NCBI GenBank assembly: GCA_016789705.1
Contig: JAEUQR010000141.1
Location: 7,175 to 71,174, forward strand
Direction of reading: 5' to 3'
DNA length: 64,000 bases
Source: Acidobacteriota bacterium
Lineage (GTDB): Bacteria > Acidobacteriota > Vicinamibacteria > Vicinamibacterales > UBA2999
The position numbers and the translations under genes are program-made. Shown here piece after piece: positions 4,968-40,018 of this stretch. The notes under the pieces were generated by a model. That model had not been told where the DNA came from. It did not search any database and was given only the letters and a program-made list of their open reading frames with translations. Position 1 is the stretch's first letter; each line of letters begins with the position of its first letter.

Positions 4968-6443
4968 TCAGCCTTCGACCACGATCTTGAGACGCGTGCC
5001 CGCGGCGGGCTGCGTGTTCACGGCGTGGCCGTTCATCAGTGCCAGGCGCGTGGCCGGGACGAGGCCGCGACCGGCGCGCTGCGCGATGCCCTGCCAGGTA
5101 TCGCCGGGCTTCGCCGTGTAGAGCGCGACGCGATTCGGCCGGATGCGCGACGCCTCGGCGCCCGACAGTTCGCGGAACGATCGCACGGCCGCGGCGAACT
5201 CCGCGTCGACGCGCGCGAAGTCAGCCTCCGGCGCCACACCTGCCACCATGTAGACCTGGCGCCCGGCCCGGATGTGCGCGGCGCGGATGCGCACGGCCCC
5301 GACCTGGCGCGCCTTGCCACGGTAGAGGCCCACGAAGGCGTCTCGTCCGCTCACGGTGTCGAGGGCGCCGTGTTCGAACGTGAAGCCAAGACCGCGCATG
5401 TGTTTCCTGGCGCCGTCGTCGAGCGCCACGCCGTTCGCGTCGGAGGCCGCGCGCATCAGCATGAGCACCTGCTCGCCCTCGAGCTGCGCGACGACCTGCT
5501 CGCTCGAGTTCTGCACGTCCCAGCCCTCCGGGAAGTCCACTGCGATACGCAGATCCGGATGCAGGAAGCGATGCGCCTGCACGACACCTTCGGCAGGGTC
5601 GTCGCCATAGGCGAGCCCGTCGATACGGCGCAGGAACTCATCGCGATTCCGGTCACGCGCCCCCTCGCTCCGGCTGGCTGCGACTGGCGCGGCTTTCACC
5701 ACGCGCGAGCCGGGGTCCGGATGTGTGGAGAGCCAGTTGGGCACACCCCGCACGCTCATCGCGTCGAGGCGCGACAGCGTGGTCAGGAACCGCGGCACGC
5801 TCTCGGGATCCCAGCCCGCCCTGGACGCGTACTCCACCCCCAGCCGGTCGGACTCGAGCTCGTCGTCGCGCCCGTACTTCAGGAAGAGGGTGCCGAGCCC
5901 GGCGGATGCCAGGTCGCTGAACGGCGCGACGCCCGGCACGAAGATGCTCGCAAGCAGCACGCCGATCGAGCCGCCGGTGCTGCGTGTGAGCTGCTGCGAG
6001 GCATGGCGTGCGGTGACGTGCCCGATTTCGTGGCCGAGCACACCGGCCAGCTCCGATTCGTCGCCGAGGTGCGCCAGCAGGCCGCGCGTGACGTAGATGT
6101 AGCCGCCGGGCAGCGCGAAGGCGTTCACGGCCGGCACGTCCACGACCGTGAACGTCCACGGCAGCGTGGGGCGATGCGACACGGCGGCGAGGCGTTCGCC
6201 GACGCCGGTCACGTAGCGCTGCAGCTCTTCGTCGTGATACACGCCCATCTCGCGGCGGATCTCGGCGTCGCCGCGCTGACCGATGGCGATCTCTTCCGCT
6301 TCACTGAGGAACGACACCTCACGCCGGCCGGTGACCGGATTCGACGCGCATGCGGCGGAGGCGACAAGCGCCAGCGCCGCAAGGCCCGCGGCCAGATGAC
6401 GAGGAACGGACAGGACCCGACAGGTGGCGGTGCGCGGCATCAC
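4968..6443 (-). CDS. M48 family zinc metallopeptidase lipoprotein with C-terminal LysM domain
   Basis: Lipobox LVASAAC. HExxH site: GVLGHEIGHVTARH. The C-terminus YTAKPGDTWQGIAQR...NGHAVNTQPAAGTRLKIV is LysM-like. Confidence 0.85.
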   Translation of the reverse strand: MMPRTATCRVLSVPRHLAAGLAALALVASAACASNPVTGRREVSFLSEAEEIAIGQRGDAEIRREMGVYHDEELQRYVTGVGERLAAVSHRPTLPWTFTVVDVPAVNAFALPGGYIYVTRGLLAHLGDESELAGVLGHEIGHVTARHASQQLTRSTGGSIGVLLASIFVPGVAPFSDLASAGLGTLFLKYGRDDELESDRLGVEYASRAGWDPESVPRFLTTLSRLDAMSVRGVPNWLSTHPDPGSRVVKAAPVAASRSEGARDRNRDEFLRRIDGLAYGDDPAEGVVQAHRFLHPDLRIAVDFPEGWDVQNSSEQVVAQLEGEQVLMLMRAASDANGVALDDGARKHMRGLGFTFEHGALDTVSGRDAFVGLYRGKARQVGAVRIRAAHIRAGRQVYMVAGVAPEADFARVDAEFAAAVRSFRELSGAEASRIRPNRVALYTAKPGDTWQGIAQRAGRGLVPATRLALMNGHAVNTQPAAGTRLKIVVEG

Positions 6444-24061: not shown

Positions 24062-24124
24062 TCAACTACGTATCGTATTGCCGGGCGGCGCCGGCACTGC
24101 ATAAGATTCACCCCACCGTCCCCC

Positions 24125-27100: not shown

Positions 27101-27874
27101 GAAGGCCAGGCCACCGATGCGCTGCACTTCGTGCTCGACGGCCGGGTGTCGGTGGGCGGCAGCCACTGCGGCCCCGACGAGCTGGGGGCCCCCGGCGTCA
27201 TCGGCTTCGAGGACGTGCTCGAAGGGCACCCCGTGCGCCACACGGCCACGGCCCTCGAGCCGACGATCACGCTGACGATGACGACCGACGCGTTCCTCAC
27301 GCTCGTGTCCGAGAACGTGGAGATCGCACAGGGCATCTTCCGCCTGCTGCTCGAGACGCGCTGCGCGCCGGCCTGGCGCACGGTCGTGCACGGCACGCTG
27401 TCGGACGAACTGACGAAACGGGTCGCCGACGGGGTGCAGACACTCGACGGCCTGCTGCTCCTGCAGTCGAGCCCGCTGTTGCAGCGGGCGACGACGGCCG
27501 ACCTGGTGCGGCTGGCGGGCATCGCCCGCATCCTGCCGCTCGCGGCCGGCGACACGCTGTTCAAGGCCGGCGACGGGGCGGCCATCCATGCCGTCGTGAC
27601 CGGCGCCATCGCGATTGCCGGCGACGGGGGCGACACCGACACCGCCGAAAGTGGCGACGTGGTGGGAATGTATGAAGCCCTCGGGGGCCGCTACATGACC
27701 TCCGCCGGCAAGGTCACGGTGGCCGGCGAGGTGCTGCGCATCGACCGCGCAGAGCTCTTCGAGCTGATGGCCGACAACATCCCGCTGCTGCAGGGCATCT
27801 TCAGCGGCCTGCTCCACGCCTCCACGCACGCGACGGCCGGCGATCACACGCACGCGGCCGGGGCCGCCCACTGA
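24125..27874 (+). CDS. TLC-like transporter + HEAT repeats + two cyclic-nucleotide-binding (cNMP) domains
   Basis: Paralog of 21302..24061 (EGATAFLLFLYSFLAMTSYNIVKPVTRSQFISSLGADNLPWV). HEAT repeats: HEHPDVRTRVLQLA, EGDVRAAAVRALA, DADTEVARAAIRSAARLG. Two cNMP-binding-like domains: LFDFVSVDELFRVASLGRQVRHEAGRVIAQEGQATDALHFVLDGRV and SPLLQRATTADLVRLAGIARILPLAAGDTLFKAGDGAAIHAVVTGAI. Confidence 0.65.
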   Translation: MPSSDTRPSRLARWLAPIAELRDGEGATAFLLFLYSFLAMTSYNIVKPVTRSQFISSLGADNLPWVQFGAGMLIGLLMQGYTKAIAAVPRRWTIPVTQAGMIALLVTFWVLFTRVGSEWVSVGFYLFGLILGILLISQFWTLANDIYDPRQAKRLFGLIGGGSSLGGATGAALTAGLVESLGTKTMLLVSAGIMFVCLLIVVRIIRSNEKAGQSDAAKTGEEEGVGGGEALALLRGSRHLQIIALVITFAAIGAAIIEQQLNMATAEAKGQSNTDGITAFLAQVTVYLSLIGLFIQVALTSRIHRLLGIGFALLILPVSLGASGLLMLSVGALWTSGLARVLDTSLRYTVDKTTREILFLPLPADVKYRAKPFIDVTVDRLSKGAGALLILVLIKDWGLALSWRQLSYASLAIMALWVFFALRARKEYMAAFRRSIVQQDMKAGEIRLETADLSTIEALVEELGHHEPKRVVYALDLIESLDKRHLVSPLMLHHEHPDVRTRVLQLAEATGPSGATRWQRGIERGLADAEGDVRAAAVRALAAVKGQGAAALMRPYLRDGDPALVVTAASALSNSTDTADVTAAMDAFRALIDDSREQRASTRAEVARALGRVTNPEFRPLLVPLMFDADTEVARAAIRSAARLGAGDFLFVPPLVSLLRNRLLKGAARDVLAGYGEAVVPTLVYFMKDREEDVWVRRHMPATLARIPCAATLQALLETVDDPDGFLRYKALAALEHLRRTRPDLVIPTVTVEKLIAGETTRAFNRLTLHYNLFHAGGLDGTSLLARALTEKYARAFDRVFTLLSLIHPPTDIAAVRHALVTGDARSRSGAAEYLDNILTGEARARVMLLAEEMPLDVRIRKGNTLFRTRQRDVEDTLAQLIHDESQEVAATAIQLVEAQQRWTLAPDLEHTLEHRPVRDWWVFEAASWALAAHRMPAERRRVLWQEPLPAVELADRLRRIRLFDFVSVDELFRVASLGRQVRHEAGRVIAQEGQATDALHFVLDGRVSVGGSHCGPDELGAPGVIGFEDVLEGHPVRHTATALEPTITLTMTTDAFLTLVSENVEIAQGIFRLLLETRCAPAWRTVVHGTLSDELTKRVADGVQTLDGLLLLQSSPLLQRATTADLVRLAGIARILPLAAGDTLFKAGDGAAIHAVVTGAIAIAGDGGDTDTAESGDVVGMYEALGGRYMTSAGKVTVAGEVLRIDRAELFELMADNIPLLQGIFSGLLHASTHATAGDHTHAAGAAH

Positions 27875-27893: not shown

Positions 27894-29414
27894 CTAACGC
27901 GGCAGGCGCACGTCGAAGGTCGTGCCGGTGCCTGGCGTGCTCGTCACGCTCACGCGGCCGCCGTGCCGTTCCACGATCGCTTTCACGATCGAGAGGCCGA
28001 GGCCCGTGCCGGGGCCGTCGGCCCGCGCGGGATCGGCCTTGTAGAAGCGGTCGAAGACGTGCGGCAGGTGTTCCGGACCGATGCCTTCGCCGGTATCGCT
28101 CACGCGAAGCACGGCGTCACCACCCTCGACGAACGCCTGCCAGCTGACACGGCCACCGGCCGGCGTGTGGCGGAGGGCATTCGCCGTGAGGTTCTGCACG
28201 ACCTGCTCGAGCCGGCGGGCATCACCGGGCACGGTGTCGAGGCCGCCGGCGATCGAGGTCTCGAGTGTGACGGCCGCGGCCGCCGCCGTCGGCCCATGCC
28301 GCTCGACCACGCGCGTGAAGAGGGCCGCCACGGCTACCGGCACGCGCTCGAACGCGGCGCCGCCGGCATCGACACGCGCCAGGTCGAGCAGGTCGTTCAC
28401 CAGCCGCTCGAGGCGCTGCGCCTCGACATCGACGATGTGCACAAAGCGGCGGCCTTCATCACTGGACGGCGCGAAGGCCGGCAGGGTCAACGTCTCGGCG
28501 TAGCCGCGAATGGCCGTGAGCGGCGTGCGCAGTTCGTGGGTGACATCGGCGAGCAGTTGCCGGCGGGCGCGGTCGGCCTCGACGAGCGCGGCCTCGCGCG
28601 CCGCCGCCTCGTCGGCCATACGGTTGAAGGCGCGGGCCACGGCCGCCACCTCGTCGCCGCCGCGCTCGACGGCGCGGGCCGTGAGATCACCGGCGCCGAA
28701 ACGCCGCGCCGCCTGTTCGAGGTCGCTGAGCCTGGCCTGCGCCGGGCGGAACACGGCAAGAGAGGCCAGCGCCGTCCCGGCCGCGAGCAGCACGGCCAGG
28801 CCCACAGCGAGCCACGGGGCGAGTTCGCGCGCCACCGCGGCGGGTGGCCGTCCGCGCGCCACCATCACCGCCGCGACGACGTGGTCGTTCACGCGCACCG
28901 GGGCCACCGCCCAGGGCGGCCCGAGCGGCCGCGGCCCGGGTCGGCTCTGCCCGCGCGCCCCGCGTGTCTCACTGTCGCGCTCCTGCGGCCGCAGATCCCG
29001 CCGGCGGGTGTTCGGCCGCCGGCCGGGCGGCCACGCCGCGTCCCCGGCGGCGAGCTGAGCCCGCACGTCCTCCACGAGCGGCGGCGGCGGCTCGAGGTCG
29101 CCGGCCACCACGCGGCCATCCGCCAGCACGAGTGCGGCCGGGCGCCCCAGATCGCGGAAGCGTTCGTCGGCCAGCAGCGCCAGATCCATGCCGCTCCCGC
29201 GTTCGGCGGCGTCGCCGAGTTCCTCGGCCACGAGCGCGGCCAGGTCACCGAGCAGGCGCGGCGGCAGCGCCGCTTCCCGCTGCGTCGAGAGCCACAGAAA
29301 AAGGCCGCCCTGCGCCACGAGCGTCGCCGCGAGGAACGCGATGAAGCCGATGGCGATGCGCCAGTAGAGGCTGCGGTACCAGCGGCGCGGGCCGGGCAGG
29401 GTCGGCTCAGACAT
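27894..29414 (-). CDS. Sensor histidine kinase (two TM segments, HAMP, HisKA, HATPase_c)
   Basis: H-box DVTHELRTPLTAIRGY; N-box QNLTANALRHTP; G-boxes VSDTGEGI and GTGLGLSIVKAIVERHGG. Start taken at MSEPTLPG; it overlaps the response regulator stop by 8 nt. Confidence 0.9.
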   Translation of the reverse strand: MSEPTLPGPRRWYRSLYWRIAIGFIAFLAATLVAQGGLFLWLSTQREAALPPRLLGDLAALVAEELGDAAERGSGMDLALLADERFRDLGRPAALVLADGRVVAGDLEPPPPLVEDVRAQLAAGDAAWPPGRRPNTRRRDLRPQERDSETRGARGQSRPGPRPLGPPWAVAPVRVNDHVVAAVMVARGRPPAAVARELAPWLAVGLAVLLAAGTALASLAVFRPAQARLSDLEQAARRFGAGDLTARAVERGGDEVAAVARAFNRMADEAAAREAALVEADRARRQLLADVTHELRTPLTAIRGYAETLTLPAFAPSSDEGRRFVHIVDVEAQRLERLVNDLLDLARVDAGGAAFERVPVAVAALFTRVVERHGPTAAAAAVTLETSIAGGLDTVPGDARRLEQVVQNLTANALRHTPAGGRVSWQAFVEGGDAVLRVSDTGEGIGPEHLPHVFDRFYKADPARADGPGTGLGLSIVKAIVERHGGRVSVTSTPGTGTTFDVRLPR

Positions 29415-30108
29415 CGGCGAACTTGTAGCCCGCACCCCACACCGTGAGGATGAGGACGGGCGCCTCCGTGTCGGCTTCGACGCGCTTGCGCAGCCGCTTC
29501 ACGAGCGTGTCGACACTGCGCGGCGTGACGAAGGTCTGATCGGGCCACACCTTCGCCAGCAGCGCCTCGCGGCTGAAGACGATGCCGGGATGCGTCGCCA
29601 GCAGGTGCAGCAGCTTGAACTCCTGCGTGGTGAGTTCCACATCCTGCCCGCGCACGCGCACACGCCGGCGCGCCGGATCGATCTCGACGCCGTGCAGGGT
29701 CACGACCTTCCCCGCGTCGCCGCCCGGGACGACGATGGCGCGCGGGCGGCGCAGCAGCGCCCGCACGCGGGCGACGAACTCGCGGATGCCAAAAGGCTTC
29801 GCCAGGTAGTCGTCGGCGCCGGTCTCGAGGCCGAGCACCTTGTCCGACTCCTCGCCGCGCGCCGTCAGCATCAGCACCGGCGTCCCGGTGTTGACGCCGC
29901 TGCGCCGCATGGCCTTGCACACGGTCAGTCCGTCCACGCCGGGCAGCATCAGATCCAGCACCACCAGGTCGACGCGCGTCGACTCGAGACGGGCGAGCGC
30001 CTCGCGGCCGTCGCCGACGAGCGTGCACTCGAGCCCCTCGAGGCCGAGGTGCAGCGCGATGAGGTCGCGGATGTGGGCGTCGTCTTCGACGACGAGGACA
30101 TGGGCCAT
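29407..30108 (-). CDS. OmpR-family response regulator
   Basis: Starts at MAHVLVVEDDAHIRD. Receiver domain: DLVVLDLMLPGVDG...LMLTA. Winged-helix output domain: VELTTQEFKLLHLLA...ILTVWGAGYKF. Confidence 0.9.
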   Translation of the reverse strand: MAHVLVVEDDAHIRDLIALHLGLEGLECTLVGDGREALARLESTRVDLVVLDLMLPGVDGLTVCKAMRRSGVNTGTPVLMLTARGEESDKVLGLETGADDYLAKPFGIREFVARVRALLRRPRAIVVPGGDAGKVVTLHGVEIDPARRRVRVRGQDVELTTQEFKLLHLLATHPGIVFSREALLAKVWPDQTFVTPRSVDTLVKRLRKRVEADTEAPVLILTVWGAGYKFADV

Positions 30109-30263
30109 GCGAGCGGCGCCCAACGGCGCCGTGCGGTCGATCTTACGGGCACCGGCCGGAGTTTCCCCCGCCAAGTGACGCCTGCCATACTTTTGTCACG
30201 CGCGCGCCGCCGCCGCGCCACGCGCGTCCCGTCTAGTAGGACAGGAAGGCTGGAGGGCATCCG

Positions 30264-30806
30264 ATGACCAAGAGATGGAAGATGGCAACTGGCGCGATTC
30301 TGGGCGTGGCGCTGCTCGCGGGCACGGGCGCCGCCGTGGTGGCCGCGGGGGATCAGGGTCCGGGCGGTCCGGGCGGGATGATGGGCCGGCGCGGCGGGCC
30401 GGGCGGCATCGTGCCCGGTCTGCGCGGGCTCGACCTGACCGACGCCCAGCGCGAGCAGGTGAAGGCGACGATGGACGCGCACAAGGCGACCTTCGATGCC
30501 CAGCGCGACAAGCTCGTGGCCGCGCACAAGGCGCTCAACGAGGCGGTGACGGCCGGCACGTTCGACGAAGCCACCGTGCGCCAGAAGGCCGCCGACCTGG
30601 CGGCCGTCGAGGCCGACGGCGCCGTGCTCCGCGCCAAGGTCCACAGCGAGGTGTGGGCGCTGCTCACGCCGGAGCAGCAGACGAAGGCGAAGGCGCTGCT
30701 GACGGAGCGGGCCGAGCGCGCCGGGCAGATGCGCGAGCGGTTCGAGGCGCGGCGCGACCAGCGTGGCCGGCGCGGCGAGCGGACGCCGCGGCCGCAGGGC
30801 GACTGA
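30264..30806 (+). CDS. Periplasmic Spy/CpxP-family (LTXXQ motif) protein
   Basis: Signal peptide MTKRWKMATGAILGVALLAGTGAA. LTXXQ-type motifs LDLTDAQREQVKA and LLTPEQQTKAKALL. Transcribed divergently from the two-component operon. Confidence 0.75.
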   Translation: MTKRWKMATGAILGVALLAGTGAAVVAAGDQGPGGPGGMMGRRGGPGGIVPGLRGLDLTDAQREQVKATMDAHKATFDAQRDKLVAAHKALNEAVTAGTFDEATVRQKAADLAAVEADGAVLRAKVHSEVWALLTPEQQTKAKALLTERAERAGQMRERFEARRDQRGRRGERTPRPQGD

Positions 30807-30950: not shown

Positions 30951-31379
30951 ATGAAGACCGTCCAGCAGGTTCTGCACGCGAAGTCCGGCCCCGTCCTCTC
31001 CGTCCGTCCGGATACCACGGTATACGACGCGCTCGTGCTGATGGCCCGGCACGACATCGGCGCGCTGCTCGTGCTCGACGGCGACCGTCTCTCCGGCATG
31101 TTCTCGGAGCGTGACTACGCGCGCAAGGTCATCCTCCACGGGCGGTCGTCGCGCACGATGCCGGTGGCCGACGTGATGACACGCGAGGTGGTGGCCGTGC
31201 CGGCGTGCCTCACGGTGGACGAGTGCATGGCGCTCATGACCGACCACCGCGTGCGCCACCTGCCGGTGGTCGAGGATGGCGACATCGTCGGGCTGGTGTC
31301 GATTGGCGACCTCGTCAAGGCGCAGATCGACGACCAGCGCTTCGTCATCGAGCAGCTCGAACACTACATCGCGCACTGA
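30951..31379 (+). CDS. CBS domain pair protein
   Basis: 142 aa. Two CBS motifs: VYDALVLMARHDIGALLVLDGDRLSGMFSERD and VDECMALMTDHRVRHLPVVEDGDIVGLVSIGD. Confidence 0.85.
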   Translation: MKTVQQVLHAKSGPVLSVRPDTTVYDALVLMARHDIGALLVLDGDRLSGMFSERDYARKVILHGRSSRTMPVADVMTREVVAVPACLTVDECMALMTDHRVRHLPVVEDGDIVGLVSIGDLVKAQIDDQRFVIEQLEHYIAH

Positions 31380-31403: not shown

Positions 31404-33695
31404 TCAGAAGCGGAAGAGGCGCGTGAACTTCACGACGATCCCGCGGTTCTGCAGGCCCGGCAGGCCGCGCGGATCGGTGTCGCGTCCTTCGCTGTACACC
31501 ACGAAGAGATCCGATCCCGGCTGGTATTCCCAGCGGAAGCGGACGTTGGCCGACACCGTGTGCGTGGCCGATGCGTACTGCACGAGCGCGCCCACGAACG
31601 AGCGCGGCGAGAGCGTGTGGGTGGCGCGGGTACGCGCCACGGTGTTGCGGAACGTCCCGTACGGCAGGTCCACCCAGTTGACCGACACCGCCGGCTCGAA
31701 CATCAGCGAGCCGTTCGCTTCGACCCGTCCGCTGTAGCTCACCTCGGTGCGGTCGCCGTCGAAGAACTGACCGCGGGTCAGGCCGACGCGGCCGGCGATC
31801 TTCCGCTGCGGTCCGAAGTTGAACGACGACTGCACTTCCTGGAAGGTGTAACCCCCGACGGGGATGGTGACACCCGTCGCGACCTGAAACGGGCGCACGA
31901 GCCGCTCGAAGTCGCGCAGGTACTTCACCTCGAAGTTGTCGCCGCCACGGAAGTCGCCGCGCGTGCTCACCTCGAGGACGCGGGTCTCGAGATCGCCCGC
32001 CGGGTTCGTGACGTAGTCGAGGCTGACTTCGTTGTGCACCTGACGCAGCCGCGTGCGTCTGAGGCGCGGGCTGAAGCGCACCTGGCCGAAGTTACGGCGA
32101 AAGTCGAGCCGGCGCAGGAAGCCGACCTCGGGCGTGAACCCCGGGCCGACGAAGAGGTGTTCGTACTGCATGCCGTAACGATCCACGGCGAAGTCCACGC
32201 GGCTCCAGTAGCTCGTGCCCTCCCCCTGGCCGCGCGACGACAGGCTGCGCACGTAGGCGCCGTCCATGGTCCACGAGTTGCGGAAGGCCATGCCCGCATC
32301 CACGCCGACGACCTGGCTCGACCCACCCCCTGCCGCGGCAACATCGCGGCTGGTGGCCAGCACGCCGATGCTGCCCCGCTTCAGCAGGTCGCGGCGCACA
32401 CGGAGCACCGAGAAGTTCGTGGAGCGTGTGACGCCGTCCTCCGACTCGCCGGTCTGGATGTTGATGGCGCCGATCGAATAGGCACCGGCGCGGCCGGTCA
32501 TGCGACCGCCGGCGAGGATGGGCACCGGACGGTTGCCGTTCAGGCCGATGCGGCGGCTGAAGAACACGACCGGCGTGTCGCCGGGGCCCTGGTTGCCGCC
32601 GGTGAGCGCGCCGGGGCTCACGCGCGTCGAGACGCCGCCGAACTGGAAGATGCCCTGCCCTTCGAGGAAGAACTCCCGCTTCTCGGGGAAGAAGACGCTG
32701 AAGCGGGTCAGGTTGACCTGCTGCTCGTCATCTTCGACCTGCGCGAAGTCGGTGTTGAACGAGAAGTCGGCGGTGAGGCTCTTCGTGACGCCGACCTTCA
32801 GATCGCCGCCGACGTCGCCGCCCGGTTCGTTGCTGCGGCGCGGCGTGCCGACGTTATCGGTGCGGACGGCGCCGGTCACGTACGGCTTCAGTTCGAGCGT
32901 GCGCGAGGCGGCGCCCGGATTCACGCCCACCATCGTGGCGAACGACGACGCCTTGTAGACACCGCGCTGCGCCCACGCCGCCGGCACGCGCGTGAGGTGC
33001 GAGAGTTCGTTCTTCCAGCGCACGACGCGCAGGAAGTTGATGCCCCAGATTTGTTCGCCGCTGCCCTGGTAGCGCAGCGACTTGAAGGGGATCGCCGTCT
33101 CGAACATCCAGCCGGTGTCGTCACGGCGGGCGCGCACGTCCCACACCGTGCTCCAGTCGACGTTGTGCACGCGTTCGTCGGTGATGTAGCCGTCGCGCAG
33201 GGCGCCGAGCGGATTGGTTTCGAACAGGAACGAGTTGCGCTTGTCGTGATACGTGTCGATGACGGCGATGAAGTTCTCGTTCTGGTAGATGTTCAGGTGA
33301 TCGCGCCGCCGCTCGTTCACCACCTCGAGTTCCGGGTGCGTATCCCAGCAGTGGGCGCTGATGTAGAGCGTGGAGTCGTCGAAGAACACCCACACGTCGG
33401 TCTTCTCGGTGGCCGGAGCGCCTTCGCGCGGCTCCTGCTGGATGAACTCGCTCATCGGATGGATGCGCTGGTAGACGGCCTCGTCGAGGCGGCCGTCGAA
33501 CGTCAGCGGGGCATCGAGGCGCACGGCCCGCACGGTCACGCGCCCGGCGTCGTCACGTGCCACCGTCACCGGCAATTCCGGCGCGGGCGGACCATCGGCC
33601 GCAGCGACCGGCGTCTGCGCCCGGGCGCCACTCACCCAGACCAGCGTGACAAGGACGACGAGCGCGGCACGAACGGCAGACGACGGACGCGGCAT
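31404..33695 (-). CDS. Secreted or outer-membrane protein with N-terminal CBM9/DOMON-like domain and large beta-rich DUF5916-like region
   Basis: Start at MPRPSSAVRAALVVLVTLVWVSGARAQ (signal peptide). Contains LTFDGRLDEAVYQ...EFIQQEPREGAPATEKTDVWVFFDDSTLYISAHCWD. Ends in an aromatic residue (...KFTRLFRF), as outer-membrane beta-barrels do. Confidence 0.65.
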   Translation of the reverse strand: MPRPSSAVRAALVVLVTLVWVSGARAQTPVAAADGPPAPELPVTVARDDAGRVTVRAVRLDAPLTFDGRLDEAVYQRIHPMSEFIQQEPREGAPATEKTDVWVFFDDSTLYISAHCWDTHPELEVVNERRRDHLNIYQNENFIAVIDTYHDKRNSFLFETNPLGALRDGYITDERVHNVDWSTVWDVRARRDDTGWMFETAIPFKSLRYQGSGEQIWGINFLRVVRWKNELSHLTRVPAAWAQRGVYKASSFATMVGVNPGAASRTLELKPYVTGAVRTDNVGTPRRSNEPGGDVGGDLKVGVTKSLTADFSFNTDFAQVEDDEQQVNLTRFSVFFPEKREFFLEGQGIFQFGGVSTRVSPGALTGGNQGPGDTPVVFFSRRIGLNGNRPVPILAGGRMTGRAGAYSIGAINIQTGESEDGVTRSTNFSVLRVRRDLLKRGSIGVLATSRDVAAAGGGSSQVVGVDAGMAFRNSWTMDGAYVRSLSSRGQGEGTSYWSRVDFAVDRYGMQYEHLFVGPGFTPEVGFLRRLDFRRNFGQVRFSPRLRRTRLRQVHNEVSLDYVTNPAGDLETRVLEVSTRGDFRGGDNFEVKYLRDFERLVRPFQVATGVTIPVGGYTFQEVQSSFNFGPQRKIAGRVGLTRGQFFDGDRTEVSYSGRVEANGSLMFEPAVSVNWVDLPYGTFRNTVARTRATHTLSPRSFVGALVQYASATHTVSANVRFRWEYQPGSDLFVVYSEGRDTDPRGLPGLQNRGIVVKFTRLFRF

Positions 33696-33763
33696 GCGAA
33701 GGATGAGGCGGCAGTGTAGCCGTGAACCTCCGCGACGCCGTGTCTGGAGTTGTGACCGGCGTC

Positions 33764-35059
33764 TCAGCGGCGCAGGCGCAGCAGGCGCAGGCCGTTCAGT
33801 GTCACCGCCACGGTCGCCCCGGTGTCGGCCACGACGGCCAGCCACAGCGGGGCCGAGCCGAGCAGCGCTGAGACGAGGAAAGCGAGCTTGGTGACGAGCG
33901 AGATGCCCACGTTCTGACGGATGACGGCCACGGCGTGCGCGGCCTGACGGCCGAGGAGCCCGAGTGTCTCGGCATCCGGCGCGCCGGCCACGATGACCAC
34001 GTCGGCCGCGTCGAGCGTGTCGGCGTCGTCATCGTCGGAGGCGATGCGCACGCCCACGGCATCGAAAGCATCGCGCGTGTGATGGGTGGTGGCGGCCGCG
34101 CGTTCGAGCGGCGCCCCGCCCTTCACGACCACGCCGCGCGTGGCGAGGGCCGTCACGGCGGCGACGACCGTGACTGGCGTAGAGATGACGAGCGCGCACG
34201 GGCAGGCCATCACGAGGAACACAAGCGCGCGATAGAACCAGCCCGCCCACTGACCGTCGAGCAGCGGCGGCACGACCGCGACCACGATCGCGGCCAGGGT
34301 CACCGCCGGCGTGTAGATGGTGGCGAAGCGTTCGATCCAGCGTTCGACCGGCGCGGACTGCTGACTGCTCTCGGCCGAGACCACGCCGCGGCGCGCGACG
34401 GTGGCCAGCGCATCACGCGCGCGTTCGAGGCTCCACGCTTCGAGACGGTGCGCCACGGCGAACAGGAACGCGACGGCCGCGGCTTCGGCCCACTGGCCGA
34501 TCGCGGCGGCGCCCGCCGCCGAGACGCAGACGAGCACGTGCATGTCGAGGCGCAGGAGCCGGAGCGCCGCGAGCGCGCGCGGCCACATGCGCCAGAGTCC
34601 CACCACCACGGCGGCCGCGTAGAGCGGCACGGCGCCGGGCGCGTGCGCGTGCGCAAGCGCGCTGGCATCGGCGTGTCCGAACAGCGCCTCGCTCCAGCTG
34701 TCGGCCGCCGCGCCGTCCACGATCCACCCGGCGAAGAACAGGCCGCCGCCGAGCAGCACGTCGGTCATGCGCGCGCGGGCACGCGGGGCCGGCGTGACCG
34801 TGGCATCGGCCACGGGCATCGCTTCCACCGTGAGGCCGGTCTTCGCGATCGCCTCGCGCAGCTTCGTCTCCGACGTCAGCGCGGGGTCGATCGTGAGATC
34901 GACGCGGGCGTGGACGAGGTCGAAGGCCACCGCCACGACGCCCTCGTCGGTCTCCACCGCGCTCCTCACGAGCGCCACCTCATCCGCGCAGTCCATCGCC
35001 GGCACGCGCAGGCGCACGTCACGCAGGCTGGAGGCGGGGCGCGGTGGGGACGGGGACAT
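33764..35059 (-). CDS. P1B-type heavy-metal ATPase-derived membrane protein lacking A, P and N domains (HMA domain + CPC transmembrane core only)
   Basis: HMA-like: LRVPAMDCADEVALVRSAVE. P1B membrane-core strings: LDMHVLVCVSAAGAAAIGQWAEAAAVAFLFAVAHRLE, SAPVERWIERFATIYTP, VMACPCALVISTP (CPC at 34195-34203), IRQNVGISLVTKLAFL, LWLAVVADTGATVAVTLNGLRLL. No TGES, DKTGT or GDGxND motif is present. The start is uncertain (35059 or 35098). Confidence 0.6.
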   Translation of the reverse strand: MSPSPPRPASSLRDVRLRVPAMDCADEVALVRSAVETDEGVVAVAFDLVHARVDLTIDPALTSETKLREAIAKTGLTVEAMPVADATVTPAPRARARMTDVLLGGGLFFAGWIVDGAAADSWSEALFGHADASALAHAHAPGAVPLYAAAVVVGLWRMWPRALAALRLLRLDMHVLVCVSAAGAAAIGQWAEAAAVAFLFAVAHRLEAWSLERARDALATVARRGVVSAESSQQSAPVERWIERFATIYTPAVTLAAIVVAVVPPLLDGQWAGWFYRALVFLVMACPCALVISTPVTVVAAVTALATRGVVVKGGAPLERAAATTHHTRDAFDAVGVRIASDDDDADTLDAADVVIVAGAPDAETLGLLGRQAAHAVAVIRQNVGISLVTKLAFLVSALLGSAPLWLAVVADTGATVAVTLNGLRLLRLRR

Positions 35060-35156
35060 GGAGGTCGGTGGACGTCGGGCTACAGGAGAGCCAGCCATTA
35101 TCGCGTGCGGCCGGTCCGGAGGCTGCACGGGTCCGATGCCGCCCGGCCGCCCCCGG

Positions 35157-38100
35157 TTACGGTTGCGCGGTGGTCGCCGGGCGCTGGGCGGCGACCGCCG
35201 CATGCGAGCGCCGCGGTTCGGCACCGCCCTCCACGGTGCCACGGGCCGCATCGACAAGCACCGCCGAGGCATAGCCGTAGCGCACCTCGCCCTTGCGGCC
35301 GATCTTCTGGAACCGGTGCCCGCGCCGCTGCAGGTCCTGCACCACGGTGGCAGGGAAGCGATCTTCGATTTCGAGCCGTCCCGCCTGTTCGAGCGGGTCG
35401 GCGGGATCGCGGCCGGGCAGGAAGCGCGGCGCCTCGATCGCCTGCTGCGCGCCGAGGCCGCCGTCGACGACGCCGGTGATGACGTTGTAGACGGTGAGCG
35501 GAATCCACGCGTTGCCGGCGCAACCCACGGCGAGCTTCGGCACGAGCGTGCTGCCGTTCTCGGCGAAGACCAGTGTCGGCACGGTGCCGGTGGTCGAGCG
35601 CATGAGCGGCACGAGGCTGCCGTAGGCGCCTTCGGTCGTGCGCGTGCTGCGCAGGTGGTTGTTGTAGAGGAAGCCGAGCCCCTTCGACACGTAGAAGGTG
35701 CCGCCCCAGGTGCTCAGCGTCTGCGTGACGGCGATGAGGTTGCCGTCGGCATCCCCCACCGCGAAGGCCGTCGTGCCACGGCCGATGCGCGCCGGCGGCG
35801 GCATGAACGGGCCGTCGTCGGGCGTCTGGCGCTCGAGTATGGAGGCACGCGCGCGATCGATCTTGCGGAAGAGACGCACGGCGTGGTCGGTGCGCAGGTG
35901 CTCCGCGTACTCGACCGGCCAGCGTTCCGGATCGGCGACGCGGCGCAGCGGATCGCGCACCTTCCAGGCCTCGATGACGTGATGCCAGTAGTCGGCATCG
36001 GTCGTCGTGCGGGCGCCGGGACGCGGCGTGTACTGATTGAGCACCTGCAGCGACTCGATGAGCTGGATGCCCGTGGCTACCGGCGGCCCGGCCGAGAAGA
36101 TCCGATGGCCGCGGTACTGGCCCTCGACCGGCGCGCGTTCCATCGCCCGGTACTGCGCCATGTCGGCGTAGGTGATGATGCCGCCCTCTTCGGCCATGTC
36201 GGCGGCGATCTTCTTCGCGATGGCGCCCCGGTAGAACGTCTCGGCGCCGTCACGCGCGATCGCCCGCAGCGTCTCGGCGTAGTCCTTGTTGACGAACCGG
36301 TCACCGGGCTGCGGCACCTTGCCGCCGGGCAGGAAGATCTTCGCGGCTTCCGGATACTTCTCGAGGAAGTGGCGGCCCTCGCTGATGCTCGACGGCAGCG
36401 CCTCGTCGAGGATGAAGCCCTCGTCGGCGAGCGCGATGGCCGGCTCGATGAGCGATGCCCAGCTCACCTTGCCGCTGCCGTAGTGGCGGTAGAGATGGTC
36501 GAGACCGGCGACGACGCCGGGGATGTTGGCGGCGGCCGGACCGTCGGCCACGATGCGGCCGTCACGCGCGATGACCGGGTTGTCCATCGTGGCGTGGATG
36601 GGCGTCTGGTCCTTGTATTCGACGACGGTCGGCTTCGCCATGCCCTTGAGGTAGAGCACGGCCGTGCCGTCGCCACCGAGCCCCGAGGCCTCGGGCTCGA
36701 CGACGCCGAGCGCGAACGACACGGCGATCATCGCGTCCACGATGTTGCCGCCGCGTTCGAAGACCCGCCGGCCGGCTTCCGAAGCCAGCGGATGGCCCGA
36801 GACGACGACCGCGCCGCGCGACGTGACGACCGGCTTGATGAGCGGCTGCTCGGCCACGAGGGCGTCGAGCACGGCTTCGAGCGCCTCGGCGTTCTTCGCA
36901 GCCTCGGCCTGCGGCCGGTACTTGTCGCGCAGCGTCACCCACGTCGCGGCGGCCGGGCCGTTCGCGTAGTAAAGCCGGCGCAGCGTGTCCCACGTGCGGT
37001 CGAACATCGCCGTCCACGCGCGCGGCTGGGCGAGTGAACTCGTGATCTCGCCGCCAGCTTCGTCGATCGGCAGCGGCGCCGGGATGCGCCACAGGCGGAA
37101 CGCCGCCGACGTCGCAAACAGCGGCGGCGCCACGCCGTCGTCACGGCGAGGGTTGCCGTTATAGGTGGGCTCGGGATCGGGGAGGCCCGCCACGAGCAGC
37201 GTACGGCCGTCGGGCGACCACGCCGGGGCCCCGGCGCGCCGCGACACGAGTTGCGGCGGCGCGGCAGGTTTCGGGCGCGCGAGCGGCGGCGTGTCGCCTT
37301 CGGTCTGCGGCAGTTCCACCGTGGCGACCCAGACCGCGCCCACGCCGCCACGCACGGCGTGGAACGCGAGTCGCGCGCTGTCGGGCGCCCAGGCGAGGTG
37401 GCTCTCCGCCCCCGTCGCCCGCGCGACTCGCGTGGGCCGCGGCGCCGCCGGCGCGTTGTCACCACGCGTGCGGACGGAGCGCGCGCCGAGCGCCACCGGC
37501 GTCTCGTCGGCGTCGGGCACGGCCATCACCCAGATGTCCACGTCGTCGTCGGACGTCCGGTCCGACACGAACGCCACGAGCGCGCCATCGGGCGACACCC
37601 GTGGATACGTCTCGCTGTCGGCGGTGTCGGTGAGCGCCACCGGCGCCTGCCAGGCAGTGGAGCCCGTGACCTCGCGCGTGATGAAGAGGTCCCACTGCGC
37701 GCCGGGGTCGGCGCCAGTGCGGCTGCCGCGCGGCGCGCGGCTGGCAAAGACGAGCCTGCCGTCCGGGGTCCACGACGGCCAGCGCTCGTCGCCGGCGAGC
37801 GCGGTCACGGGCGTGATCGCGCCGTCCTTGACCGTGGCGACGAAGAGATCGAAGCCGGCGCCGCGATTCGCGGCAAACGCGATACGTGTGCCGTCGGGCG
37901 ACCACGCCGGATCGCGCTCGATGCCGGGCGCCGCGCCGCGCACGAGCGGCGACGGCTGGCGGCCATCCGGCGCGAGCGTCCAGAGCGTGTCGAGGGCGGA
38001 GACCGCCACGCGGCGGCCGTCCGGGGCCCATGCCGGATCCTGCGCGCCAACAACAGCGGCCACGCCGCCTGGCTGCGCCCCGAGCCGCGCGTGCCCCGAC

Positions 38101-38165
38101 CCGACGAGCAGGCTCACGAGCCCCGCGGCCGCAACCGCCCGCCGCGCCGAGAGCGGCCGGGTCAC
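35157..38165 (-). CDS. ggt: Secreted fusion protein: N-terminal PD40/TolB-like beta-propeller repeats + C-terminal gamma-glutamyltranspeptidase
   Basis: GTG start at the complement of 38163-38165, overlapping the tkt stop (GTGA). Signal-like segment: RRAVAAAGLVSLLVGS. PD40 repeats: PAWAPDGRRVA, PAWSPDGTRIAF, PSWTPDGRLVF, PRVSPDGALVAF, LAWAPDSARLAF, PAWSPDGRTLL. GGT part: VVSGHPLASEAGRRVFERGGNIVDAMIA...EPEASGLGGDG. Nucleophile context: GRGTTAFAVGDADGNLIAVTQTL. Confidence 0.8.
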   Translation of the reverse strand: MTRPLSARRAVAAAGLVSLLVGSGHARLGAQPGGVAAVVGAQDPAWAPDGRRVAVSALDTLWTLAPDGRQPSPLVRGAAPGIERDPAWSPDGTRIAFAANRGAGFDLFVATVKDGAITPVTALAGDERWPSWTPDGRLVFASRAPRGSRTGADPGAQWDLFITREVTGSTAWQAPVALTDTADSETYPRVSPDGALVAFVSDRTSDDDVDIWVMAVPDADETPVALGARSVRTRGDNAPAAPRPTRVARATGAESHLAWAPDSARLAFHAVRGGVGAVWVATVELPQTEGDTPPLARPKPAAPPQLVSRRAGAPAWSPDGRTLLVAGLPDPEPTYNGNPRRDDGVAPPLFATSAAFRLWRIPAPLPIDEAGGEITSSLAQPRAWTAMFDRTWDTLRRLYYANGPAAATWVTLRDKYRPQAEAAKNAEALEAVLDALVAEQPLIKPVVTSRGAVVVSGHPLASEAGRRVFERGGNIVDAMIAVSFALGVVEPEASGLGGDGTAVLYLKGMAKPTVVEYKDQTPIHATMDNPVIARDGRIVADGPAAANIPGVVAGLDHLYRHYGSGKVSWASLIEPAIALADEGFILDEALPSSISEGRHFLEKYPEAAKIFLPGGKVPQPGDRFVNKDYAETLRAIARDGAETFYRGAIAKKIAADMAEEGGIITYADMAQYRAMERAPVEGQYRGHRIFSAGPPVATGIQLIESLQVLNQYTPRPGARTTTDADYWHHVIEAWKVRDPLRRVADPERWPVEYAEHLRTDHAVRLFRKIDRARASILERQTPDDGPFMPPPARIGRGTTAFAVGDADGNLIAVTQTLSTWGGTFYVSKGLGFLYNNHLRSTRTTEGAYGSLVPLMRSTTGTVPTLVFAENGSTLVPKLAVGCAGNAWIPLTVYNVITGVVDGGLGAQQAIEAPRFLPGRDPADPLEQAGRLEIEDRFPATVVQDLQRRGHRFQKIGRKGEVRYGYASAVLVDAARGTVEGGAEPRRSHAAVAAQRPATTAQP

Positions 38166-40018
38166 CGCGTTGCGCGCACGGCGTCGGCGATCTTGGCCGC
38201 CGAGAGGCCGTAGACGTCCACGAGTTCTTCCGGTGTGCCGCTGCGCGGAATCTCGCGCACGCAGAGGCGCGTCACGGTCGCGCCCACGCCGGCCACGGCG
38301 CGCGCCACCGCGTCGCCGAGGCCGCCCACCGCGTAGTGGTCCTCGACGGTGATGAGGCGTCCCGTGTCCGTCGCGCAGCGCTGCATGGTGGCGGCGTCGA
38401 TCGGCTGGATGGAATAGGCGTCGACGACACGAATCGCGATGCCCTCCTTCGCCAGCAGGTCGTGCGCCTTGAGCGCTTCGAAGAGCGTGATGCCGGCGCC
38501 GATGACGGTGGCCACGTCGGCCGCGCTCTCGCGCAGCACGGTGGAGCCGCCCACCGTGAATGTCGCGTCGTTCGGGTAGATGACGGGCGTCTTCGGCCGT
38601 GAGGTGCGGATGTAGACGGGCCCCTCGTGGTACGCGGCGGCGGCCACGAGGCCCTCGGCGCACACGGCGTCACTCGGGTAGAGCACCGTCATGTTCGGCT
38701 CGGCGCTCATCATCGCCAGGTCTTCGAGCGCCATCTGCGACGCGCCGTCTTCGCCGATCGAGACACCGGCGTGCGAGCCGGCCATCTTGATGTTCAGTCC
38801 GCTGATGGCGGCCATGCGGATGAAGTCGGCCGCGCGCGACAGGAACGCCGCGAAGGTGGACGGGAACGGAATGGCGCCGCGGCTGGCGAGCCCCATCGCC
38901 GCGCCGATCATCACCTGCTCGGCGATGAAGCACTGATAGAAGCGGTCGGGGTGTTTGACCTCGAAGCGCTCGCTGAAGGTGGAGTTCTTGACGTCGGCGT
39001 CCAGGGCGACGACGCGCGGATCCGCATCGCCCAGCTTCGCAATCGCCGTGCCGTAGGCTTCGCGTGTCGCGACGAGCTCGCCGAACGTGTAGGCGGGTGG
39101 CGCCACGGCTTTCGGCGTGACGGGCGTGTGCGCGGGGCCCGACGGGCGGCGGACCTCGGCCGACGAGCCGGCCGGTTCTGGCACGAGCTGCGCGTCGAGT
39201 TCGGCGAAGGCGCGCGTGAGCTCGTCGCCCTTCTTGAGCGCCTTGCCGTGCCAGCCGGGCTGGCCGGCCAGGAAGCTCACGCCCTGCCCCTTGAGCGTGC
39301 GGGCGAGGATCATCGTGGGCTTGCCGGTGGTGCTGCGCGCCTCGGCGAGCGCGCCGAGGATCTGCGCCATGTCGTGGCCGTCGATGGCGATGGCGTGCCA
39401 GCCGAACGCCTTCCAGCGGCGCTCGAACGACGCGAGGTCGTGCTCGAACTGCGTGCCACGGCTCTGGCCGAGGGCGTTGATGTCGGTGATGCCGACGAGA
39501 TTATCGAGGGCGAAGAACTGACCGGCCGCCGCCGCTTCCCACACCGAACCTTCGGCGCTCTCGCCGTCGCCCATGAGTACGTAGGTGCGGTAGTCGGAAT
39601 TGAGGCGCCGGGCGTTGAGCGCCGTGCCGATGCCGGCGCAGAGGCCCTGCCCGAGCGAGCCCGTGGCGACATCCACGAACGGCAGCCGCGGCGTGGGGTG
39701 TCCTTCGAGATCCGAGGTGAACTTGCGGAGGTTGAGCAGGTCGGCCTTGTCGATGAACCCGGCCTCGGCCCACGCGGCGTAGAGGAGCGGCGCGGCGTGC
39801 CCCTTCGAGAGCACCAGCCGGTCGGCGTGCTCGTGGCGGGGGTTGGCGGGGTCGTACCGCATCTCGGCGAAGAACAGCGCCGCCATGAGGTCGGCCGCCG
39901 ACATGCAGGTCGTCGGGTGGCCGCTGGCCGACTCGGTCGTGGCACGAATCGACTCGATGCGCAGCCGCGTCGCGATGTTCTTCAGTACAGGCACGACACG
40001 GGACGTCTCAGCACTCAC
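38162..40018 (-). CDS. tkt: Transketolase
   Basis: 618 aa. ESASGHPTTCMSAADLMAALFF...LVLSKGHAAPLLYA...; ThDP motif VLMGDGESAEGSVWEA. Confidence 0.9.
   Translation of the reverse strand: MSAETSRVVPVLKNIATRLRIESIRATTESASGHPTTCMSAADLMAALFFAEMRYDPANPRHEHADRLVLSKGHAAPLLYAAWAEAGFIDKADLLNLRKFTSDLEGHPTPRLPFVDVATGSLGQGLCAGIGTALNARRLNSDYRTYVLMGDGESAEGSVWEAAAAGQFFALDNLVGITDINALGQSRGTQFEHDLASFERRWKAFGWHAIAIDGHDMAQILGALAEARSTTGKPTMILARTLKGQGVSFLAGQPGWHGKALKKGDELTRAFAELDAQLVPEPAGSSAEVRRPSGPAHTPVTPKAVAPPAYTFGELVATREAYGTAIAKLGDADPRVVALDADVKNSTFSERFEVKHPDRFYQCFIAEQVMIGAAMGLASRGAIPFPSTFAAFLSRAADFIRMAAISGLNIKMAGSHAGVSIGEDGASQMALEDLAMMSAEPNMTVLYPSDAVCAEGLVAAAAYHEGPVYIRTSRPKTPVIYPNDATFTVGGSTVLRESAADVATVIGAGITLFEALKAHDLLAKEGIAIRVVDAYSIQPIDAATMQRCATDTGRLITVEDHYAVGGLGDAVARAVAGVGATVTRLCVREIPRSGTPEELVDVYGLSAAKIADAVRATR

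Follow-up and report, generated by a model that had tools for sequence, protein, structure and literature searches.

A family of P1B-2 ATPase derivatives in Vicinamibacterales that keeps the HMA domain and the membrane metal pathway and lacks the ATP-using domains

In a 64,000-nucleotide stretch of Acidobacteriota DNA (the window; assembly GCA_016789705.1, contig JAEUQR010000141.1, positions 7,175 to 71,174 of the forward strand) we found a short gene that is a derivative of P1B-2 (ZntA/CadA-type) heavy-metal ATPases and encodes an HMA domain followed by an eight-helix membrane core. The gene represents a stable family that is under purifying selection in the Vicinamibacterales (Acidobacteriota) and occurs in more than 100 species of soil Acidobacteriota, and we consider its P1B-2 identity and its maintenance by selection nearly certain. 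The pump-derived protein probably handles metal without ATP. For its function we prefer, with a rough probability of 0.45, transport of a Zn-type divalent metal by a carrier or channel that needs no ATP and would be gated by the protein's own metal-sensing segments.

Gene and domain layout

An earlier, sequence-only reading had placed the open reading frame (ORF) at 33764-35098 without naming a strand. It is encoded by the minus strand and ends with a stop codon at 33764-33766; a start at the ATG at 35098 is possible and would give 444 residues, but the homologues in the databases are called from the ATG equivalent to 35059 (429-432 residues), which favours a protein of 431 residues. Residue numbering throughout is that of the 431-residue protein, and E. 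coli ZntA was the alignment reference for residue mapping and domain gaps. The parts of the gene are listed here with their evidence (dN/dS, ratio of non-synonymous to synonymous substitution rates; pLDDT, predicted local distance difference test):

33764..35059, minus strand: coding sequence (CDS) of the engine-less P1B-2 ATPase derivative, 431 residues plus stop (ORF list, homologue length, translation check)
34820..35026, minus strand: HMA ferredoxin-like metal-binding domain, residues 12-80, N-terminal and cytoplasmic (Pfam, Foldseek, dN/dS 0.16)
34979..34993, minus strand: HMA metal motif D23-C24-A-D-E27, DCxxE instead of CxxC
34766..34819, minus strand: variable HMA-MA linker, rich in Pro/Ala in the window but in His in most relatives (dN/dS 0.52)
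34559..34765, minus strand: P1B-specific helices MA (99-118) and MB (143-167) (AlphaFold2 helices)
within 34559..34765, minus strand: extended periplasmic His-containing MA-MB loop, residues 119-142, GHADASALAHAHAP (dN/dS 0.19)
34394..34543, minus strand: helices M1 and M2 with H174, V177, C178, E192, F200 and H204 (mapping over 77 sequences)
34352..34393, minus strand: A-domain stub RRGVVSAESSQQSA, a loop of ~14 residues (alignment gap, AlphaFold2 coil with lower pLDDT, dN/dS 0.20)
34142..34351, minus strand: helices M3 and M4 with funnel residue E243 and the CPC site (residue mapping, dN/dS 0.065)
34196-34204, minus strand: C286-P287-C288 metal site in M4 (invariant, 77/77)
33977..34141, minus strand: P-domain remnant, residues 307-361 (ZntA alignment, AlphaFold2 strands, motif table, dN/dS 0.22)
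33779..33976, minus strand: helices M5 and M6 with N383(x)7K391 and D412-x-G414(x)7N422 (invariant, 77/77; dN/dS 0.10)

In a Pfam scan the HMA domain (PF00403) scored 30.8 bits against a cutoff of 24.8, and the match to E1-E2_ATPase was limited to profile positions 102-180 of 181, i.e. the C-terminal ~80. ZntA models and the PDB sequence 4umv match the protein in three disjoint pieces (query 159-233 to ZntA 155-230, query 241-350 to ZntA 333-440 and query 347-443 to ZntA 640-732). The PDB sequence match skips ZntA ~231-332 and ~441-639, and in the alignment to E. coli ZntA the gaps fall at ~234-327 (the A domain) and ~441-640 (the P-domain core and the N domain).

The predicted structure agrees with this layout. 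An AlphaFold2 model built on a 74-sequence alignment (mean pLDDT 85.3, predicted template modelling score 0.81) has a ferredoxin-like HMA domain and eight long helices (MA, a kinked MB and M1-M6, with M4 broken at the CPC motif); where the A domain and the P/N module would be, it shows a short coil and a three-strand stub, respectively. Foldseek searches against the PDB returned P1B ATPases as top matches, ZntA (4umw) first (E = 4e-9) and then ATP7B and CadA (7qbz), while the HMA domain alone matched MerP, CopZ-like and ATP7 metal-binding domains with a template modelling score of ~0.9. The eight helices typical of P1B ATPases (MA, MB and M1-M6) were thus recovered by the model, by Foldseek and by the ZntA alignment, and the membrane helices that had earlier been aligned by eye were assigned correctly; the strings quoted for the HMA motif and for the helices (MDCADE, VMACPCALVISTP, IRQNVGISLVTKLAFL and LWLAVVADTGATVAVTLNGLRLL) are all present in the ORF.

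Loss of the ATP-using domains

In the alignment to ZntA the actuator (A) domain of ~95 residues is replaced by a loop of ~14 residues, and the P/N module by a three-strand remnant of ~55 residues (residues 307-361) between M4 and M5. The remnant aligns to the KGGxxLE hairpin and the last beta-alpha-beta unit of the ZntA P domain (GIAMG...ADAAL): it contains the hairpin VVVKGGAPLE, followed by GVRIAS...AADVVIV, with AlphaFold2 strands at 310-312, 339-341 and 354-356. According to the alignment and the motif table, this region has lost the DKTGT strand and the Rossmann core together with the N domain and GDGxND. The sequence-only reading had reduced the A domain to about 10 residues, and 9 residues indeed separate ATVARRG and SAPVERW. 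It had also described a strong shortening of the P/N module, which stands (28 residues between KGGAPLERAA and AADVVIVAG), whereas its view that the P domain was stripped altogether has to be given up, as the ~55-residue remnant still aligns.

Regular-expression searches of the protein found no TGE, DKTG, GDGxND or HP, in line with the earlier statement that TGES, DKTGT and GDGxND are missing. D-x-T-G does not occur in it either and the DKTGT segment is gapped in the ZntA alignment; the TGD motif of the P domain is absent from it in the ZntA-aligned motif table, and Pfam found no match to PF00702 (HAD/hydrolase) in it. The scores for curated models fell short of their cutoffs as well: 36.4 against 62.3 bits for TIGR01494 (P-type ATPase, HAD-IC superfamily), 181 against 1005 for NF008262, 173 against 1240 for NF033775, 137 against 313.5 for TIGR01512 and 136 against 346 for TIGR01525. 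As the protein would be unable to bind or hydrolyse ATP or to form an aspartyl-phosphate, we infer that it works without ATP, and with the catalytic motifs all absent, ATP-driven transport by this polypeptide alone is implausible. As it has none of the catalytic features and stays below all the curated cutoffs, the protein should not be filed as a P-type ATPase, and the annotation 'heavy metal translocating ATPase' should not be given to the short form.

ATP could still be used if the protein were one half of a split pump, with the A and P/N domains supplied in trans and the complex hydrolysing ATP. The two stubs are constrained (dN/dS 0.20 and 0.22) and could in principle be docking sites for such domains. 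Nevertheless, no gene for a PF00702 or E1-E2 A domain was found in two fully read family loci, nor among 13 window ORFs scanned with Pfam, and a tblastn search of the 64-kb window with E. coli ZntA returned the pump-derived locus and no other P1B ATPase. Moreover, in the reduced relatives described below, DKTGT dies first, at a stage when the domains have not yet been detached, contrary to what a split would give. We know of no split P-type ATPase and consider this arrangement highly improbable; a trans-encoded A or P/N domain was sought and not found in the window and the neighbourhoods examined.

Conservation and selection

The short form is widespread. When 5.8 billion proteins were searched, over 100 clusters of 410-460 residues came back, with identities from 100% down to 52%, and the clusters with source names came from Vicinamibacterales or Acidobacteriota. 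Using two family-specific peptide patterns (LDMH[VA]LVC and DGxW[AGS]xWFYR) we found relatives in 114 species-representative genomes, in each case with a sequence of the Vicinamibacterales/Acidobacteriota type; the 80 retained loci all match at about 410-440 residues, and the hosting contigs include Mb-scale ones and a complete 5.35-Mb chromosome. From independent assemblies 77 complete CDSs of 398-469 residues were extracted, none with an internal stop, and the boundaries of the deletions are unchanged even at 52% identity.

Selection was measured as dN/dS (Nei-Gojobori) over 29 pairs with dS between 0.1 and 0.6; these replaced an earlier set of mostly saturated pairs (mean dS 0.93), for which the ratios were inflated. 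The overall value is 0.16, with close pairs at 0.10-0.20. Among the segments, M3-M4 has the lowest value (0.065), followed by M5-M6 (0.10), MA, MB, M1 and M2 (0.12), the HMA domain (0.16), the MA-MB loop (0.19) and the stubs of the A domain (0.20) and P domain (0.22), and the HMA-MA linker is the least constrained (0.52).

Could the gene be a full-length pump that is decaying as a pseudogene, or that was shortened by an error of assembly or gene calling? Its members are automatically annotated as 'heavy metal translocating P-type ATPase', and the window gene taken alone could resemble an internally deleted pump. The intact CDSs from independent assemblies (Mb-scale contigs and the complete chromosome among them), the dN/dS of 0.10-0.20 in close pairs and the identical deletion boundaries at 52% identity speak against it, and we reject this explanation, which we regard as having practically no chance, on the strength of the 77 CDSs, the 114 species genomes and the low dN/dS. 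The sequence-only reading had asked for conserved short homologues, for purifying selection and for the exclusion of an assembly collapse, and on each point the outcome favours a real gene. Its overall view of a functional, ATP-independent derivative rather than random decay is supported, with the ATP-independence as what the loss of the domains would lead one to expect.

The metal pathway

In ZntA the metal enters through a funnel (E184, E214 and D348) and is bound by C392, C394 and D714; M187 and F210 are caps, E202 lies at the exit and K693 is a built-in counter-ion, while the P1B-2 signatures are CPC in M4, N(x)7K in M5 and DxG(x)7N in M6 (PMC6305203). We mapped these residues one by one onto the 77 family sequences. 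C286, P287, C288, D412 and K391 are each present in all 77, and so are N383, G414 and N422, which completes the P1B-2 signatures of M5 and M6. The exit residue E192 (ZntA E202) and the cap F200 (ZntA F210) are likewise invariant (77/77), the other cap is a valine (V177, ZntA M187) in 76 of the 77, like in plant HMA4, and the periplasmic M3-M4 loop DGxWxxWFYR is invariant in the family.

The funnel itself has been altered. E184 of ZntA is replaced by H174, E214 by H204 and D348 by E243 in all 77 sequences, and a cysteine (C178) occupies the position of S188 in 72 of them. The wider P1B-2 clade mostly has N, V/L, G and E at these four positions, and therefore we consider the His2-Glu-Cys set an innovation of the Vicinamibacterales family; from its residues the set would have the composition of a zinc site.

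The HMA domain departs from the usual CxxC motif, with Glu for the second Cys in 77 of 77 sequences; C24 and E27 are invariant in the 74-sequence alignment, and the motif variants found in the 77 sequences are all of the form DC[AG][DE]E. In the motif table the corresponding motif of ZntA is GMDCAAC, the Asp of which we take to be a Zn ligand. The CCxxE motif of plant HMA4, to which DCxxE is likewise similar, binds Zn(II) (PMC6305203). Histidines are frequent in two further segments: at least three are found in the HMA-MA linker of 56 of the 77 relatives (e.g. DDHHHHDHHHD), the subclade of the window being without a His-rich stretch, and at least two in the periplasmic MA-MB loop of 73. Taken together, DCxxE, the His-rich segments and the funnel histidines suggest that the metals concerned are divalent and of the Zn(II) type, and not Cu(I).

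Reduced relatives within the Acidobacteriota

We collected relatives by a profile search of 1.84 billion representative proteins and a second homologue search, and read the state of each from a motif table aligned to ZntA. The P1B-2 clade that includes the short family shares a DCA(E/D)E HMA motif and a His-containing MA-MB loop, and its members can be ordered by what is left of the catalytic domains:

Stage i, canonical: P0126 (743 residues) and P0270 (675 residues); TGE(S), DKTG, HP, TGD and GDGxND present
Stage ii, full size: P0129, P0272 and P0279 (the last two ~670 residues); DKTGT changed to DKTA, DRQG or GRAG (DRQG or GRAG in P0272 and P0279), GDGxND degenerate
Stage iii, 550-600 residues: P0284, P0291, P0290, P0295, P0128, P0124, P0133 and P0139; without N domain and DKTGT, TGES kept
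Stage iii variants: P0322 and P0277, likewise without N domain and DKTGT; TGES replaced by GDHDHRH
Stage iv, ~490 residues: P0123 and P0125; A domain kept, P/N cut to the same stub
Stage v: P0135 (388 residues), P0166 (420 residues) and the Vicinamibacterales family; neither A nor P/N

The canonical P0126 and P0270 exceed the cutoffs of both TIGR01525 and TIGR01512. CPC, the lysine, the aspartate and the exit glutamate are present in every stage, and several of the reduced genes lie intact on long contigs (P0322 on many of up to 3.6 Mb, P0295 on contigs of up to 486 kb, and P0123 on one of 67 kb). Judging from the aligned motifs, the Vicinamibacterales family is the last step in a graded series whose members are catalytically dead or domain-reduced, and the existence of the series argues that the HMA domain and membrane core remain useful in this clade after ATP turnover has been lost.

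A neighbour-joining tree was made on 384 shared columns; its backbone has bootstrap values below 40% and only well-supported nodes were used. The Vicinamibacterales clade is monophyletic (100% bootstrap) and the canonical P0126 is sister to the degenerate P0277 and P0322 (99%), which together imply that catalytic death occurred independently at least two times. This tree, which suggests at least two independent degenerations, does not fix the exact order and number of the domain losses.

Some of the relatives deserve separate mention. In P0322 and P0277 (~600 residues; loci L085-L087) the TGES loop has become a His-rich insert, THGDHDHRH; their gene adjoins an extracytoplasmic function (ECF) sigma factor/anti-sigma pair and occurs on many contigs, including those of wastewater metagenomes. 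P0284 (556 residues, 'Candidatus Solibacter usitatus') lacks DKTGT and the N domain, yet it scores 332.8 bits with TIGR01512 against the cutoff of 313.5 and would consequently be annotated automatically as a cadmium-translocating ATPase, an annotation pitfall. More generally, 'heavy metal translocating P-type ATPase' and 'Cd2+/Zn2+-exporting ATPase' are the names given by annotation to the short proteins and to the relatives of 550-670 residues in which DKTGT is dead, and the counts of metal-resistance genes in soil Acidobacteriota metagenomes are therefore probably inflated.

The surroundings of the reduced relatives vary: the neighbour may be a Fur/PerR-like regulator or an ECF sigma factor, and in other cases an aromatic amino-acid operon. 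The genes for P0123 (L084 8001-9485), which retains the A domain, and for P0135 (L089 1459-2625), which is without it, are each divergent from a Fur/PerR-like regulator gene:

L084 7361-7732, minus strand: Fur/PerR-like regulator beside P0123
L089 971-1375, minus strand: Fur/PerR-like regulator beside P0135, orthologous to the former (66% identical)

Both regulators score below all NCBIfam cutoffs. A tblastn search found no Fur-family regulator in the window or in 82 related loci of the Vicinamibacterales type; it was seen only beside P0123 and P0135.

Genomic context

The neighbours of the pump-derived gene in the window are the following; counts of neighbours refer to the 82 related loci and are lower bounds, given their limited flanks.

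35157..38150, minus strand: fusion of a PD40/Tricorn beta-propeller and gamma-glutamyltranspeptidase (GGT), more than 1000 residues (Pfam, junction sequence)
31404-33845, minus strand: DUF5916/CBM9 protein of 813 residues with a signal-peptide-like start, between the pump-derived gene and the CBS gene
30951-31379, plus strand: stand-alone CBS-pair protein near the pump-derived gene
30264-30806, plus strand: CpxP/Spy/ZraP-like Metal_resist/LTXXQ gene (Pfam, NCBIfam)
29407-30174, minus strand: OmpR-type response regulator, divergent from the LTXXQ gene (Pfam, NCBIfam)
27897-~29400, minus strand: HAMP histidine kinase (Pfam, NCBIfam)

The GGT fusion lies upstream on the same strand in 71 of the 82 loci. 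Its longest ORF in the window (35157-38663, minus strand) overlaps the transketolase gene, which it follows, and its true start is probably near 38150; the distance from its stop to the start of the pump-derived gene is 58-97 nt. A consensus scan found no promoter-like or terminator-like site in this gap and no sigma-70-like site in 33400-35500, where three weak terminator-like matches inside the coding region are regarded as chance. The GGT fusion and the pump-derived gene are probably co-transcribed.

On the other side, the LTXXQ gene is found downstream on the opposite strand in 50 of the 82 loci, and the response regulator and the histidine kinase in 47 each. The divergent arrangement of the LTXXQ gene and the regulator/kinase genes resembles that of cpxP-cpxRA and zraP-zraSR, and these genes may have a functional tie to the pump-derived gene. 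In contrast, the DUF5916/CBM9 gene occurs in 6 of the 82 loci only and is considered unrelated, and the CBS-pair gene, adjacent in only 16, is not a feature of the family and probably no dedicated partner.

In the majority subclade (~50% identity) a bcp peroxiredoxin gene, which the window does not have, is directly upstream in 53 loci; it scores 151 bits with PRK09437 (cutoff 140) and ends 0-60 nt before the short gene or overlaps its start. In locus L003 this bcp/PrxQ-type thiol peroxidase (FYPKDDTPGCTQETC) is encoded at 9571-10041 on the same strand, and in 52 other loci at ~5500-6040. The subclade of the window has lost the arrangement or never had it. For the majority subclade it would fit a bcp operon that is linked to peroxide stress, and the context as a whole is suggestive of metal or peroxide-stress physiology.

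Transketolase and isocitrate/isopropylmalate dehydrogenase genes also co-occur around the locus, i.e. the gene order is conserved in general. Searched with Rfam at gathering thresholds, the whole window contains no structured RNA or riboswitch. Further away in the window we noticed two very large MFS/TLC (ATP/ADP-translocase-like)-HEAT fusions (21305-24061, minus strand, and 23930-27871, plus strand) that are conserved in related loci, the second with cyclic-nucleotide-binding domains fused to it too. At 13598-15931 (plus strand) an HD_5 (HD-GYP-like) and GAF protein coincides with a dip in G+C content (0.60 against ~0.70) and is directly followed by a 931-residue sigma-54 activator (15933-18728, plus strand); the two may form a signalling module that was acquired recently or differs in composition.

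A possible mode of action

The carrier or channel that we favour would move a Zn(II)-type divalent metal by passive or secondary translocation through the retained ZntA pathway. At the periplasmic end this pathway would consist of the His-rich MA-MB loop and the exit residue E192, in the centre of the C286/C288/D412 site, with K391 as the built-in counter-charge that neutralises the site when empty, and at the cytoplasmic mouth of the remodelled H174/C178/H204/E243 set. Switching between inward-open and outward-open states would be thermal, without phosphorylation. Sensing of cytoplasmic metal and gating of the pathway would fall to the DCxxE HMA domain, to the linker that is His-rich in most members and to the His2-Glu-Cys mouth. 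With the inside-negative membrane potential, the carrier would give metal uptake if uncoupled, whereas proton antiport would give export. We prefer transport over mere binding because E192, the DGxWxxWFYR loop, F200 and the K391-D412 pair are invariant on both sides of the membrane; the invariance of periplasm-facing and exit residues would be hard to explain by binding of cytoplasmic metal alone.

Several considerations weigh against the carrier or channel. Transport, metal specificity, direction and gating are all features that we infer from sequence, and the presumed proximity of H174, C178, H204 and E243 derives from their equivalence to the ZntA funnel residues. It is the A and P domains that normally move the membrane gates of P-type ATPases, and to our knowledge metal translocation by a P1B membrane domain alone, natural or engineered, has never been demonstrated. 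High-affinity Cys2-Asp sites would be slow to release metal without energy, which favours binding or sensing. The general conservation of gene order makes the neighbourhood weak evidence of function, and control by Fur/PerR, as possible for some of the relatives, would not fix the direction, because the Fur/PerR-regulated P1B-4 pumps PfeT and FrvA are exporters, going by the reference list of PMC10654040.

These considerations lead to a different possibility, less likely in our view though the strongest of the competing ones, namely that the protein is a membrane metal sensor, chaperone or regulatory partner without net transmembrane flux. Its binding places for metal would be the HMA domain, the His-rich segments and the CPC site, from which the metal or a signal would go on to a candidate partner such as a canonical pump, the neighbouring histidine kinase with the CpxP/ZraP-like protein or the probably co-transcribed periplasmic GGT fusion. 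The absence of an energy-coupling domain, the preference of high-affinity Cys2-Asp sites for binding over turnover (as known for P1B-2; PMC6305203), the invariant new His2-Glu-Cys cluster at the cytoplasmic mouth and the Metal_resist gene and two-component system adjacent in at least 50 of the 82 loci would all fit, and P1B pumps have been proposed to act as transceptors (PMC10654040). Nevertheless, the protein has no output or interaction domain besides HMA, and a cytoplasmic sensor would not need the invariant E192, F200, K391 and M3-M4 loop. Moreover, the Metal_resist and two-component genes do not share a transcription unit with the pump-derived gene but are convergent or divergent, in a region where gene order is conserved anyway.

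An active exporter that works without ATP, i.e. a metal/proton antiporter that uses the proton-motive force and keeps the ancestral outward direction, is in our estimation a good deal less probable again. P1B-2 pumps are ancestrally exporters, and the protein still has all residues of the cytoplasmic entry and of the periplasmic exit; the neighbouring Metal_resist/CpxP-like gene indicates periplasmic metal stress, and the new histidines of the mouth could be titrated by protons. On the other hand, we saw no new membrane carboxylate, and in ZntA K693 is a built-in counter-ion and no proton counter-transport is evident (PMC6305203), while the corresponding K391 is invariant here.

Returning to the ATP-independent carrier or channel, the wider proposal that the membrane domain of a P-type pump was repurposed in this way as an autonomous unit, and repeatedly so in the Acidobacteriota, is slightly more tentative than the proposal for the single family. 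If it is true, a natural 'engine-less' P-type ATPase would be on record for the first time, the P1B-2 membrane core with HMA would be a functional unit by itself, and a route from a dead catalytic site to the stepwise loss of the N, P and A domains would have been taken repeatedly in the Acidobacteriota. P-type ATPases are the textbook case of tight coupling between a cytoplasmic ATP engine and a membrane ion pathway; a natural, widespread and selected protein that keeps the pathway without the engine raises the question what a P-type membrane domain can do alone, as a carrier, a channel or a sensor. It offers a minimal system of ~430 residues for the study of metal binding, occlusion and gating in P1B pumps, with the intermediate relatives as a ready-made dissection series. 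The Vicinamibacterales are abundant in soil and freshwater, and an order-wide, unrecognised metal-handling protein is relevant to their trace-metal physiology.

Comparison with known systems

The sequence-only reading knew of no characterised example, and our literature searches likewise brought none to light: no description of P1B ATPases without catalytic domains was found in the literature searched, which included a 2023 review of P-type ATPases and of which the coverage is incomplete. No curated family for the short form was found in Pfam or NCBIfam, and we know of no characterised P-type ATPase relative that handles metal without ATP.

The best match in sequence and fold is ZntA (E. coli, Shigella sonnei; PDB 4UMV/4UMW), which handles Zn(II), Cd(II) and Pb(II) and is 39% identical over the aligned columns. 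The two have the N-terminal HMA domain, MA, MB and M1-M6, CPC, N(x)7K, DxG(x)7N, the exit Glu and the cap Phe in common. Unlike ZntA, the pump-derived protein is without the TGES-containing A domain, DKTGT, the N domain and GDGxND and reaches 181 bits where the ZntA equivalog cutoff is 1005; it has DCxxE where the ZntA HMA domain has DCxxC, invariant histidines in place of E184 and E214, Val for M187 and Cys for S188, and a long, His-rich MA-MB loop. CadA (PDB 7QBZ; TIGR01512, 'cadmium family'), a P1B-2 ATPase that translocates cadmium, is the second-best match among the PDB sequences. The canonical members of the clade, P0126 and P0270, pass as members of this family with both TIGR01512 and TIGR01525, whereas the pump-derived protein, at 137 against 313.5 bits and without catalytic domains, does not.

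The reduced P1B-2 relatives in the Acidobacteriota have the DCA(E/D)E motif, the His-containing MA-MB loop and CPC/K/D in common with the protein, but in most of them the A domain or some of the P domain is still there, and the Vicinamibacterales family stands apart from them as a clade of its own (100% bootstrap) with its own invariant H174, C178 and H204. For the HMA domain, the N-terminal domain of plant HMA2/HMA4 (CCxxE; PDB 2KKH, with 2kkh among the Foldseek matches) has the same fold and Glu at the position of the second Cys; unlike the plant motif, D-C-x-x-E has Asp at the position of the first Cys, and its metal binding is predicted. For a membrane domain working by itself, the nearest parallel is the Na,K-ATPase, of which trypsin-shaved '19-kDa membranes' reportedly still bind and occlude cations (Karlish and co-workers, 1990). 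Those membranes are an artificial proteolytic product of a P2C pump and show no net transport, whereas in the Vicinamibacterales a comparable reduction is encoded by a natural gene.

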